Source of the DNA: a virus
Direction: 5' to 3' (one strand)
Virus record (IMG/VR): IMGVR_UViG_3300020248_000002
DNA length: 64,000 nucleotides
Numbering within the stretch: the stretch's first letter is position 1; every line of letters begins with the position of its first letter. The notes below the pieces were generated by a model. It searched no databases. It was not told the origin of the DNA and was given only the letters and a program-made list of their open reading frames with translations. Below, one piece after another: positions 12,785 to 17,632 of this stretch. The position numbers and the translations under genes were made by a program.

Positions 12785-13030
12785 ATGAAACTAATCGACG
12801 GATGCTACTCTCTCAAACTAGAATGTGCGTTGAGAGGGTTGGGATTTGTCGATGTGGGTAAGTGGAAAACTGTAGCAAGAGCAGGTATATTTTTTGTTGA
12901 ACCAATAGGAATCCCAGAGGACCCTGATGCGGATCTTCTGGGATTTTTAGTGACTATTCCTTATGCTTCGTGGAAGAGACCGAGATTAAAAGATACTGCT
13001 AAAAAAGCGTTGGACTACTGTTTGGATTAG
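12785..13030 (+). CDS. hypothetical protein
   Basis: Abuts the previous ORF; converges on gp53. Confidence 0.5.
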   Translation: MKLIDGCYSLKLECALRGLGFVDVGKWKTVARAGIFFVEPIGIPEDPDADLLGFLVTIPYASWKRPRLKDTAKKALDYCLD

Positions 13031-14043
13031 TACCCTCCTCCGTAGTATCCACCCCCACTTGATCCCGAAGACCCGCTAGAACTAGAAGAACCACTAGAAG
13101 AACTAGAACTACTTGATCCACTTGAGGATGAAGAACTTGATGAACTTGATGACGAACTCGATGAACTGCTTGACGAGGAACTTGTGTCAGTAGATGATGT
13201 ATTATTATAAGTTGTAGCGGAAGAGGCATTTGAATCTGTTGTACTTAATGTTACACCTGTAGATGTAGTTGTCGTGGTTGTTGACGACGCTGCTGATGAA
13301 CCACCAGAAGATATTAATGCAGTAGAAGAACCACCACCAGATGCAGAACCTGTTGATGCAGTGCTCTGTCTTGGACGATTGTACTTGGGTAGACCGATAA
13401 ATTCTTCAGCAAGAGATCCTTGTGTTTTCTTATTGTTAGAAGAATCTAGTTCAATGTTAGGAAGATACCTTGCTAACTTCTTGAACTCTGCAATGAAGTC
13501 ATTTAGATATTGTGGACGTAAAAGATATATGTTTCTCTTAGTATCATTTATTGCTGCTTCATAGGAGTAGTAGGATACTGAAGATCTAGATTCGGATTTT
13601 GGAAGGATGGTGCCATCGGGTTTCGTGTATTGGTAAGACTCCGAAACAGTAATCCCACCAGGAAGTAGGACAAGATCAAGACTAGGACTCTTATACTCCT
13701 TTGTTTCATAGTGCTTTACTCCTTCGATAGAACCGTATTTGTCTAGGACATAGTTGTATAAATCTTCACGATTCATTGGCCAATCTTCATTTACATTAAT
13801 AATGTTATTAATTAGAAGAATTACCCAGTCTAGACCTGCATCTTTATATATCTCATAGGCAACCTGATCAGGTCTTGTTCCATCTTGTATCTCATACTGA
13901 GTGAATCCAAGTAATGAACCTTGTAAATCATCTCTGATTTTGATACGTCTAAAAATATTTACAGACAGTTCATATGGTTGTGAACCGTTGACTCTGGTTT
14001 TATTTCTAACAAAAACTTTAGGTAGGTATTTAAAGTATGCCAT
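13027..14043 (-). CDS. gp53: baseplate wedge protein gp53 with Ser/Thr-rich tail
   Basis: YFKYLP, NIFRR, RPDQVA..IY...DWVILLINNI...WP, HYET, KRNIYLLRP.Y. Confidence 0.88.
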   Translation of the reverse strand: MAYFKYLPKVFVRNKTRVNGSQPYELSVNIFRRIKIRDDLQGSLLGFTQYEIQDGTRPDQVAYEIYKDAGLDWVILLINNIINVNEDWPMNREDLYNYVLDKYGSIEGVKHYETKEYKSPSLDLVLLPGGITVSESYQYTKPDGTILPKSESRSSVSYYSYEAAINDTKRNIYLLRPQYLNDFIAEFKKLARYLPNIELDSSNNKKTQGSLAEEFIGLPKYNRPRQSTASTGSASGGGSSTALISSGGSSAASSTTTTTTSTGVTLSTTDSNASSATTYNNTSSTDTSSSSSSSSSSSSSSSSSSSSSGSSSSSSSSGSSSSSGSSGSSGGGYYGGGY

Positions 14044-15083
14044 TACACTGTTAGTGAATTTCTAGTAAGGAATGCAGTCTCATCAAAAACTAGAGACATT
14101 GTGAAAGAAGCAGGACCGTAATCCATATTACTATCAAAAGCATCTTTCAATGAATTATATGGACCATCAGGAGATAAATTTATACTCATATTTTTTAACA
14201 CTACTTTAGTAGGGAACTGCATAATTCTTTTCAATCCTTTTGGAGAACCACCACTCAGTTCTAAACTACCATCATCACTTGGTGTTCCTGCTATACGAAT
14301 GATGTCAAGTCTAAAGTAGTCTGGTATTCCTAACCAACGACCTGCTGCTGACCCACTAAATGCTTCTTCTGCAAGGGTAGTATCAGTCTCATTACCTCCT
14401 TCTGTTACTCCAGTTTGTTCTGCTTTATCTGCATCTTGCATTTCTGGTAACATTCCTCTACGGAGAACGTTTATTATCTTATATAACTCATCTGATTCTT
14501 GTCTGTTACGTGGTTGACATTGGAAAGAAAAGTTATGTGAACGATAGTTTGTACCACGGAATGTTGTTTCTTGGTATGGGTTAAATATTTTCTTCTTAAC
14601 TAAAGCACCAACACTATTAGCATCTAAGTTAGAACCACTTGCTCCTAGTGCACTATTAATTGTACCTAAAGCACCTGCAATTTTATCCATAACAAACTGA
14701 GGTTTTGCTGCTTTTGCAGTAGTTTGAATAGCACTTACTATATCTACGTCTCCTCCTGCTGCTGCTGTTGCTCCTGCATCTAATGCTTGAACACCTGCTG
14801 CACCAACGGTTGTTCTTTCATAATTTGTAGAGTATTGTTCTTGTAATTTTGGTGGTAGGTACAAATAAATTGTATTTTTTAAACTACCTTCTGCTTCTCC
14901 ACCACCACCAAGCACACTGTTACTACCATATCCACCACTGTTACCAATGTAAGAATATGGATTACCATCTGTTGACGAGTGGTGTTTTATTACTAAATAG
15001 TCTACGAAACTGGTCTCGAAACTATCTCTTCTGTTTTGCAAAAGAGAACTCCCAGGAACTGATCTCGGATATACTAATGACAT
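14043..15083 (-). CDS. gp48: baseplate tail-tube cap gp48
   Basis: IYLYLP, NPYQE..F.G..YR.H.FSF...PRN..ES; adjacent to gp53. Confidence 0.8.
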   Translation of the reverse strand: MSLVYPRSVPGSSLLQNRRDSFETSFVDYLVIKHHSSTDGNPYSYIGNSGGYGSNSVLGGGGEAEGSLKNTIYLYLPPKLQEQYSTNYERTTVGAAGVQALDAGATAAAGGDVDIVSAIQTTAKAAKPQFVMDKIAGALGTINSALGASGSNLDANSVGALVKKKIFNPYQETTFRGTNYRSHNFSFQCQPRNRQESDELYKIINVLRRGMLPEMQDADKAEQTGVTEGGNETDTTLAEEAFSGSAAGRWLGIPDYFRLDIIRIAGTPSDDGSLELSGGSPKGLKRIMQFPTKVVLKNMSINLSPDGPYNSLKDAFDSNMDYGPASFTMSLVFDETAFLTRNSLTV

Positions 15084-15530: not shown

Positions 15531-16000
15531 GCACCTTCACCGACATAAAAGCAAAACAAACTGGTGGTAGAACTAAACAGTGGTGGAGAAACAAGTTAAG
15601 AACTGCTCTCAATACCTATGTTTCACCACAGGTAGGTAGGATGGTGTTCTTTGACTATCCAAACCCAAAGTTTAAAGAGAAAATGTTTCATTGGGATGCG
15701 TTTCCATTGGTTTATATTATGAATGAAGATGCTGAACATTTCTGGGGTGCTAACCTACATTATGTGATGCCACAGGAACGTGTAGCGATGGGTGAAGCAT
15801 TAGCAGCAGGTAATTCTATATCAAGTGATGTTTTTGCTCTTACCGTGCATAAATACTTGAGGAATAGAGTGCGTGGTGCTTTATTAGACATACCAGAATC
15901 TGATTGGGCAGATATAGGTTTGATGCCCTTAGAACAATTTTATGTAACTATTAATGGAAGAGATAAACCTATGCCAACGCAGTTAGCACTAAAAAGATGA
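15527..16000 (+). CDS. gp2: DNA end protector gp2
   Basis: GRMVFFDY..PK.K....WD.FPLV, FWGANLHY, HKYL. Confidence 0.8.
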   Translation: MSTFTDIKAKQTGGRTKQWWRNKLRTALNTYVSPQVGRMVFFDYPNPKFKEKMFHWDAFPLVYIMNEDAEHFWGANLHYVMPQERVAMGEALAAGNSISSDVFALTVHKYLRNRVRGALLDIPESDWADIGLMPLEQFYVTINGRDKPMPTQLALKR

Positions 16001-16689
16001 GAAATTTTAAAGGTTTTCAAGATTTTCTAGCAAAAGGTAATTACGGACCGTCGAAGAGTAATCTATTCGAGGTCACAATACAACCACCTCGTTTTGTGTT
16101 TGCAAATACTGCTAATACTTTAGGACCAGGTGGATCAGTAGAATTAAATGAGTGGAATGATGCTGTAGACTATCTTGCAGATGAAGTAAAGATTCCATCA
16201 AGAGCATTGATGACTGGAGGTGTAACTAACTTTGGTATTGAAAGAAAGTATGCTACATTCCAACAACCACAAGAGATGAACATACAGTTCATAGTTCCAG
16301 TAAATCAGTGGCCAAGGTATGTTTTTGATCGTTGGATTCAAATTATAAGTAGAGACTCTGAGAATAGAACAATGTTTTATGATGATTACACAGCAGACAT
16401 ACACATAGATAAGTATGAAGGTGGATCTAATGACATACTTAGAGCAACAGACTCATTTACAGGGAGAATAATAGGACAGACAAGATTAAATAAAGTTACA
16501 GCAAGTTGGACTGCATTTAATTGTTTCCCTACTAATGTAAGTGTGATGTCATTTGACAATAAACAGACACGATTGATGAAGTTAGATGTTCAGTTCAGAG
16601 TTGAAAGACTACGTATGGAAGCAAAGATAGGATCACAGGGAGATTGGAGAGCAAGTAATTACATAGATCAGAATGTAATCCGTCGTTAG
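15997..16689 (+). CDS. gp54: tail-tube-like protein / baseplate tube initiator gp54
   Basis: NLFEV.I..P, V.IP.R, FDRW, FYDDY, FPTNV, L.VQF. Confidence 0.65.
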   Translation: MRNFKGFQDFLAKGNYGPSKSNLFEVTIQPPRFVFANTANTLGPGGSVELNEWNDAVDYLADEVKIPSRALMTGGVTNFGIERKYATFQQPQEMNIQFIVPVNQWPRYVFDRWIQIISRDSENRTMFYDDYTADIHIDKYEGGSNDILRATDSFTGRIIGQTRLNKVTASWTAFNCFPTNVSVMSFDNKQTRLMKLDVQFRVERLRMEAKIGSQGDWRASNYIDQNVIRR

Positions 16690-16727: not shown

Positions 16728-17438
16728 ATGCCAATGCCATTGCCGACCCTCGTGGTCCCTGAGTATGAATGTACCCTACCGTTCGGTCAAAAGGTAACAT
16801 ACCGTCCATTCCTAGTTCGTGAAGAGAAATTGCTTTATATGGCAATGGAATCTCAAGATCAAAAGGAAATGATCAAGGCAGTTAAAGAGATTATTAAAAA
16901 TTGTACGAGTGTTAAAAAAATAGAAACACTTGCTACATTTGATATTGAATATTTGTTCTTACGTATTCGTGCTAAGTCAGTAGGTGAAGTCAGTGAATTT
17001 AAAGTCATTGCTCCTGATGATAACGAGACTCAAGTTGAAGTAGAAGTTAATCTTGAGGAAGTAGAAGTAGTTGTTCCAAAAGAACATACAAATAAAATAA
17101 AAATTACTGATGAAGTCACACTCGTGATGAAGTATCCTTCTATTGATACATTTGTAAAGAATAATCTAGCAGATGATCCTAAACTTGATGACATTTTCCA
17201 ACTTGCAGCAGATTGTGTAGACCAAATTGCCAACGGTGAAGAGGTAGAAAACGCAAAAGCATACAAGAAAGGAGAACTCATAAACTTCTTTGAAACTATG
17301 AACAATATGCAGTTTCAGAAAGTGCAAAACTTTTTTGAATCAATGCCTAAAGTATCTCATACTATTGAAGTTTTCAATCCAAAGACTGAGAAGAAGAGTG
17401 AGATGGTTCTGGAGGGGATGGCAAGTTTTTTCGCATAG
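16728..17438 (+). CDS. gp26: baseplate hub assembly protein gp26
   Basis: LPTL..PEY, YRPFLVREEK.L, FDIEYLFLRIRAKSVGE, MKYPS, FFESMPK, ends LEGMASFFA; TAAATA at 16695-16700. Confidence 0.9.
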   Translation: MPMPLPTLVVPEYECTLPFGQKVTYRPFLVREEKLLYMAMESQDQKEMIKAVKEIIKNCTSVKKIETLATFDIEYLFLRIRAKSVGEVSEFKVIAPDDNETQVEVEVNLEEVEVVVPKEHTNKIKITDEVTLVMKYPSIDTFVKNNLADDPKLDDIFQLAADCVDQIANGEEVENAKAYKKGELINFFETMNNMQFQKVQNFFESMPKVSHTIEVFNPKTEKKSEMVLEGMASFFA

Positions 17439-17458
17439 CCCTCTCACACGATACATTG

Positions 17459-17632
17459 ATGAATCTATATGAAGTGAACTTTGCATTAATGCAACATCAT
17501 AAGTATAGTCTGACTGAATTAGAATCTATGATGCCTTGGGAGAGGGATGTCTATGTAAATATGCTCATACGACATCTTCGTGAGGAAGAAGCACGTCAGA
17601 AACAGGCAAATTCACAACATCAAACACTGTAA
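17459..17632 (+). CDS. gp51: gp51-like hub assembly protein (57 aa; absent from ORF track; possibly made by frameshift from gp26)
   Basis: MNLYEVNFALMQHHKYSLTELESMMPWERDVYV; its frame is open back to the T-run at 17426. Confidence 0.8.
   Translation: MNLYEVNFALMQHHKYSLTELESMMPWERDVYVNMLIRHLREEEARQKQANSQHQTL

Follow-up and report, generated by a model that had tools for sequence, protein, structure and literature searches.

Gene 26 in a DNA stretch of 64,000 nucleotides from an uncultured T4-like cyanophage (IMG/VR record IMGVR_UViG_3300020248_000002; the window denotes this whole stretch in the following) is probably decoded in two ways, giving a 236-aa short tail (baseplate-hub) assembly chaperone by ordinary termination and a 301-aa long chaperone through a −1 ribosomal slip close to the end of the gene, a reading to which we assign a probability of roughly 0.8. 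Most ribosomes would terminate at the TAG at 17436 and release the short form; a minority would slip back by one base with their Phe tRNAs on the heptamer T_TTT_TTC, UUU re-pairing with UUU and UUC with UUU, and would continue in the −1 frame through the open reading frame referred to as gp51 to produce the long form. This long form would share the architecture of T4 gp51, a gp26-type domain followed by a conserved tail of about 50–65 aa, and in T4 and its close relatives the slip would have been replaced by a duplicated second gene. Such a pair would follow the G/GT (TAC-N/TAC-NC) scheme of long-tailed phages. A preliminary description of the window had proposed the 236-aa gp26 and a fusion of about 301 aa as a G/GT-like chaperone pair encoded before the tape-measure genes. 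Sequence-level support for such a pair, presented below, comes from the anatomy of the site, from its conservation, from a control offered by phages with two genes, and from a long form that is colinear with T4 gp51 and an N-domain that resembles known chaperones in fold. The closest cultured relatives of the window are Kyanoviridae cyanophages with about 67 % nucleotide identity, and the features concerned are collected in Table 1.

Table 1. Features of the window at and around the proposed frameshift site.
Feature	Position	Strand	Remarks
Tail-tube-like gene (gp54/gp19-like)	15997..16689	+	phrog_45 tail tube, E 5.8e-33; directly upstream of chaperone gene
gp26 short chaperone form (TAC-N)	16728..17438	+	236 aa, C-terminus ...EGMASFFA-TAG
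Internal Shine–Dalgarno-like GGAGGGG	17411..17417	+	possible slip stimulator; anti-SD duplex −9.8 kcal/mol
Slippery heptamer T_TTT_TTC, X_XXY_YYZ phase	17426..17432	+	proposed −1 shift site
gp26 0-frame stop TAG	17436..17438	+	one codon past heptamer
−1-frame extension ("gp51" part)	17432..17632	+	66 codons + TAA stop
First tape-measure-like gene, 763 aa	17633..19924	+	phrog_167 and phrog_991 tail length tape measure protein; directly downstream
Second tape-measure-like or tail-lysin-like gene, 729 aa	19924..22113	+	phrog_1200, phrog_167, phrog_1272

The last codons of gp26 read AGT (17424), TTT, TTC, GCA and TAG, so that the ending, the heptamer and its phase had been given correctly to the base in the preliminary description, and the internal Shine–Dalgarno (SD) motif GGAGGGG pointed out there is indeed present, 8 nt upstream of the heptamer. 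Read from 17426, the −1 frame translates as FFRIALSHDTLMNLY..., turning the gp26 stop codon into part of ATA GCC (Ile-Ala), and the claim that it enters gp51 without a stop holds for all 66 codons up to the TAA at 17630–17632. Joining 16728..17432 to 17432..17632 gives a predicted long form of 235 + 66 = 301 aa, for which the tryptic peptides ...SEMVLEGMASFFR and then IALSHDTLMNLYEVNFALMQHHK are expected at the junction. No SD-like motif was found before the ATG at 17459, in agreement with the earlier view that gp51 starts without one. As the long open reading frames of the AT-rich window hold 100 in-phase X_XXY_YYZ heptamers, the gp26 heptamer taken alone is not significant, and this abundance is what a chance heptamer without function has in its favour. 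It is the sole one of the 100 with a long open −1 frame (66 codons; 32 for the runner-up) adjoining a 0-frame stop. Against chance stands its invariance over about 140 distinct junctions from several phage families, together with its absence exactly where a separate long-form gene exists; by these conservation data a chance occurrence is effectively refuted.

Conservation was followed in two sets of loci. The first, comprising 28 lineages defined by nucleotide identities below 85 %, carries the heptamer in 90 of 90 loci and in all 63 distinct junctions. In all 78 IMG/VR loci with both genes, at gp26 identities of 54–98 %, gp26 closes with nTTTTTTCGnnTAG and gp51 follows in the −1 frame. Heptamer and −1 frame are likewise found in 11 annotated phages with gp26 identities down to 24 %, namely S-WAM1, S-RIM2, Syn9, MA01, Sinorhizobium phiM12 (in which the heptamer is T_TTT_TTT), Stenotrophomonas DLP_6 and Moby, Cronobacter S13, Aeromonas Ah1, Vibrio phi-ST2 and Vibrio KVP40. 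The second, more divergent set of 80 further loci yielded 55 distinct junctions, 54 of which contain T_TTT_TT[C/A/T] (29 TTC, 23 TTA and 2 TTT), and the one remaining locus looks broken. Conservation of the heptamer and of the −1 phase, on which the proposal depended, is thus borne out by the relatives.

Across these relatives, C, A and T all occur as final base of the heptamer, and G never does. Junctions with T_TTT_TTA encode Leu instead of Phe in the 0 frame and keep the Phe-Phe of the −1 frame; since the last base varies together with the 0-frame residue, it is the slippery pattern and the −1-frame Phe-Phe that are conserved, not the 0-frame protein. The codon before TTT always ends in T (AGT, TCT, GCT, GAT or AAT), which represents conservation at synonymous sites. 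Codon usage would lead one to expect the heptamer at about 0.27 per lineage, and chance falls far short of explaining how well it is conserved. Among 136 full-length cluster representatives of the protein, 110 end in FF followed by 0–3 residues, and most of the other 26 end in FL plus one residue. Among the other Phe-Phe dipeptides in the long open reading frames of loci L001–L091 and the window, only 6 of 321 are encoded as NNT TTT TTY. Codon usage alone would give approximately 25 %; these phages seem to avoid the slippery heptamer at other places.

The homopolymeric T run would also suit slippage by the RNA polymerase, which would add one U on the T6 run in some transcripts and give rise to the same 301-aa fusion, one inserted U producing exactly the frame needed. 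Documented bacterial transcriptional slippage mostly needs at least 8–9 identical bases or, where the run is shorter, a hairpin directly in front of it. The run at the end of gp26, however, comprises six T in nearly all junctions and seven in only three lineages (phiM12, L118 and L125, each with T_TTT_TTT), and no conserved hairpin was found upstream of the heptamer (alifold 0.0). Furthermore, the run is always X_XXY_YYZ-phased, and the exclusion of G from the base that follows it matters for tRNA re-pairing and not for a polymerase. We therefore regard transcriptional slippage as improbable. The strict phase, the re-pairing of Phe tRNAs, the lack of G as last base and the run length of six make −1 slippage of the ribosome the best fit, and we infer that the recoding is translational.

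A different account would do without recoding altogether: gp51 would be an independent 57-aa protein made from the ATG at 17459 or by re-initiation after the gp26 stop, and the heptamer a by-product of a conserved Phe-Phe in an AT-rich genome. The window lineage offers TTG and ATG at −1-frame codons 10–11, the distance of about 20 nt from stop to start would permit coupling, a TAATG overlap occurs in KVP40 and phi-ST2, and databases list gp51 as a separate gene. The position of the start is not conserved, however; candidate gp51 starts lie at inconsistent positions across lineages, almost never with an SD, and 7 of the 28 lineages have no ATG, GTG or TTG ahead of the conserved NFA motif, which makes independent initiation, counted in the preliminary description as evidence against the fusion, impossible in these seven. 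Conservation also extends to residues ahead of each candidate start. The ten codons that separate the slip site from the window ATG evolve as coding sequence, their entropies at codon positions 1/2/3 being 8.5/4.7/13.3, and in 56 aligned post-slip peptides His6 is invariant and Leu9 nearly so, both of them upstream of the window Met10; the peptide ahead of the gp51 Met, whose conservation had been put forward as a check, is conserved in both respects. In no homologue examined is the way from the slip site to the gp51 part interrupted by a stop, as the proposal demanded, and a −1-frame stop often lies just 4 codons before the heptamer. With start codons that are inconsistent, SD-less or missing, it is understandable that annotators had trouble with gp51, which is absent from the GenBank records of S-WAM1, S13 and Ah1 and appears as a truncated open reading frame of 45–47 aa in those of S-RIM2 and Syn9.

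Comparison with T4 bears on the same question and on the identity of the predicted products. Window gp26 matches PF12322 (T4_baseplate) with an E value of 1.5e-66 over profile positions 2–219 of 219, and phrog_150 with 1.1e-72 over positions 3–232. The post-slip peptide occupies positions 235–279 of phrog_150 and matches phrog_634 (E 2e-28), the family named "baseplate hub assembly catalyst", of which the short downstream open reading frame covers only the last 53 profile positions. In BLASTP the post-slip peptide aligns with residues 201–244 of T4 gp51 (E 2e-5), starting at the first post-slip residue. T4 gp26 (208 aa) consists of PF12322 alone (E 8.8e-64), and T4 gp51 (249 aa) of a complete PF12322 domain (residues 1–201, E 3.9e-52) and a tail of about 48 aa. 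The alignment of this tail and the positions on phrog_150 make the predicted fusion colinear with T4 gp51. Cyanophage and vibriophage gp51 are described to "miss the first ~200 amino acids" (Sullivan et al. 2010, PMC3037559) and to measure just some 20 % of T4 gp51 in length (PMC3037559); it is these residues that the proposed slip would supply. In T4, gp26 and gp51 are known from genetics as hub assembly chaperones, with gp51 being absent from the virion (PMC3004832).

A natural control is provided by phages in which genes 26 and 51 are separate and divergently transcribed. In none of six such lineages (T4, a Mosigvirus, a Dhakavirus, a Lazarusvirus, an RB49-like Krischvirus and Aeromonas AS4) did we find the slippery heptamer, and all of them keep the ..GLKEFF.. 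motif, with the codons GAG TTC TTT, GAA TTC TTT, GAA TTT GTT or AGT TTC CTT. This absence in six of six two-gene lineages ties the heptamer to the need for the long form. It also speaks against a gp51 without recoding, as T4-type phages retain Phe-Phe without the heptamer, which in one-gene phages is kept at synonymous sites and with a last base that changes the 0-frame residue, and as the T4 gp51 tail is fused to a gp26-type domain. Taken with the conserved residues, including the invariant His, ahead of every candidate start, these points render the account without recoding improbable. In the window lineage, with its ATG about 20 nt past the gp26 stop, some independent or re-initiated 57-aa product may nevertheless be made.

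Several variations within the family were observed on the side. CxxxC and CxxC pairs, probably forming a zinc ribbon, occur in gp26 of many relatives, within a domain after the chaperone fold that corresponds to residues of about 95–105 and 215–225 of the window protein; window gp26 is devoid of most of these Cys residues, and T4 gp51 shows weak zinc-ribbon Pfam matches. The 299-aa protein P0031 from a 191-kb ENA contig (Pfam PF12322 and PF28602) is an in-frame gp26–gp51 fusion with the junction ...EGMGQAFRVALAHD.. and without the FF heptamer, and P0020 (249 aa) continues in a different frame. Either natural fused variants or assembly errors in homopolymers could account for both.

Sequence searches with gp26 and its profile against PDB chains returned only noise, gp26 had no match in NCBIfam, a search of the ESM Atlas with PF12322 excluded gave no usable match, and all that a BFVD search brought up was the gp26/gp51 family. 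The AF2 model of gp26, based on 111 sequences, reached a pLDDT of 95.4. When this model was compared to 48,161 PDB chains with VIA-align, the top three ranks were taken by 3fgx_B (Z 7.8, 83 aligned residues), 2ob9_B, the HK97 tail assembly chaperone (Z 7.2, 84), and 3klu_A (Z 7.0, 85). All three align to model residues 1–95, and the next unrelated chains score about 5. PMC9603447, citing Pell 2013, lists 3FGX, 2OB9 and 3KLU as the known tail assembly chaperone structures. These three entries represent the spiral chaperone fold (Pell et al. 2013). The structural comparison suggested in the preliminary description thus turned out in favour of its proposal, the N-domain of gp26 matching all three solved chaperones. 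Foldseek with the isolated N-domain also put 2ob9 on rank 1, at an E value of 0.4 that is not significant; with the full gp26 model it gave no significant match in the PDB, the HK97 chaperone being on rank 9. Because the Z values are middling, the evidence for the fold rests on the ranking, and because Foldseek alone is not significant, we consider it moderate; on this basis the N-domain is predicted to adopt the tail-assembly-chaperone fold. A complex prediction for the post-slip peptide, entered as an alignment, with the upstream tube-like protein scored 0.00 and gave no verdict.

Elements that might stimulate the slip were sought on both sides of the heptamer. From the heptamer to position +110, RNAalifold found no consensus downstream structure in 21 cyanophage lineages (−0.44 kcal/mol). 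In single-sequence folds, strong hairpins 6–7 nt after the heptamer are restricted to some lineages, such as S-WAM1, L040, L072 and MA01 (L084); the fold downstream of the window heptamer is weak (−10.3 kcal/mol), and the strong hairpin is absent from the window lineage. In S-WAM1 (L081:2150–2300), we noticed an 11-bp stem, GCGUUAAUGCA/UGCAUUAAUGC, formed by the codons for ALMH and FALM. A lack of conserved downstream structure is common for low-efficiency chaperone frameshifts, and a low efficiency seems likely here as well. Upstream, the SD-like element is the strongest anti-SD match within gp26 of the window lineage, and in most other lineages it amounts to about −6 kcal/mol (top 5–15 %). 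It overlaps the conserved Leu-Glu-Gly codons. Of the earlier claim that an SD stimulates the slip, the presence of the element is upheld; its stimulatory role is plausible from the sequence and unproven, since outside the window lineage the element is not strong, and since it is confounded with the conserved codons, Glu-Gly among them. It may nonetheless help the slip in this phage.

The gene order around the site fits a chaperone pair. In phiM12, S13, phi-ST2 and KVP40, the gene syntenic to the one upstream of gp26 bears the annotation tail tube monomer or baseplate tail tube initiator, and the tape-measure-like genes said to follow gp51 were recovered through their PHROG matches (Table 1). 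With the tube-like gene, gp26/gp51 and the tape-measure-like genes, the order is tube, chaperone, tape measure, as in V-G/T-H of lambda, and by analogy with lambda the two forms may act on the tape-measure protein and the tube. The two tape-measure-like genes are consecutive and large, both match tape-measure as well as tail-lysin PHROGs, and the product of the first has a long middle part rich in Lys/Arg and Gly. Further upstream, a 338-aa open reading frame on the minus strand (13027–14043) ends in a very long Ser/Gly/Thr low-complexity tail with tens of consecutive Ser, adjoining a 346-aa structural-looking gene at 14043–15083.

The preliminary description had regarded such a slip as undescribed in T4-like phages, which appears to be wrong. 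Vladimirov, Gautam and Davidson 2022 (Virology 566:9-15; doi 10.1016/j.virol.2021.11.003) are reported to have identified gp26 and gp51 as the tail assembly chaperones of T4-like phages. The PRFect paper (PMC10885494) cites this work for T4-like phages in which a short chaperone gene and a fused long one take the place of frameshifting, and PMC12846349 cites it where poly-T slippery sequences are mentioned for "TAC-N genes of T4-like phages". Both the chaperone genes and the poly-T slip signal thus appear to have been published in 2022, and the feature in the window, although real and strongly supported, is ordinary for its family and apparently already known. It is possible, though we think it rather unlikely, that the 2022 paper covers just the chaperone identity and the two-gene solution of T4; the strictly conserved T_TTT_TT[C/A/T] slip in all one-gene T4-like phages, its loss where gene 51 is separate and its apparent independence of a conserved downstream structure would then be unreported. 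Beyond the published essentials, experimental proof and re-annotation are left to be added.

If read in this way, the slip would be a trait of one-gene T4-like phages at large, including cyanophages, marine, Vibrio, Aeromonas, Stenotrophomonas and rhizobial phages. It would solve an annotation puzzle, the "gp51" of cyanophages and vibriophages being the C-terminal part of a frameshifted gp26 and not a gene of its own. Since Kyanoviridae and many T4-like records omit or truncate this open reading frame, hundreds of records would gain a joined coding sequence. A frameshifted chaperone pair is near-universal in long-tailed phages; the T4 superfamily would be brought into line with them, and T4 itself would become a derived exception in which the long form is fixed as a second gene. 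For cyanophage biology, the window would provide a simple recoding site in hosts in which SD-mediated effects are thought to be weak.

[quoted passage not shown] As in lambda, the long form predicted for the window contains the whole short form and the gene comes after one of tube type; a strong RNA structure appears to be needed in neither, and both N-domains have the tail-assembly-chaperone fold, which for the window stems from a predicted model. The heptamers differ, with G_GGA_AAG in lambda and T_TTT_TTC in the window, and at roughly double the length the window chaperone also carries an additional C-terminal domain, rich in Cys in many relatives. The T4 family, unlike lambda, acts at hub assembly, and profile and PDB sequence searches detected no similarity of window gp26 to lambda gpG. 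E. coli dnaX (A_AAA_AAG) shares the SD-like element about 8–10 nt upstream of the heptamer; its downstream hairpin, however, has no conserved equivalent in the relatives of the window, the SD-like element is weak in most of these lineages, and the dnaX shift truncates the protein, whereas that proposed for the window extends it. The U_UUU_UUA of HIV-1 gag-pol equals the T_TTT_TTA found in 23 distinct junctions of the second set, yet it works in a eukaryotic setting and with an obligatory downstream stem-loop. T4 itself shares with the window the family PF12322, the pair of a short and a long form (predicted in the window) and a gp51 tail that aligns with the post-slip peptide; it differs in encoding the pair by two divergently transcribed genes, with a gene 26 that lacks the heptamer, where the window phage would manage with one gene and a −1 slip.
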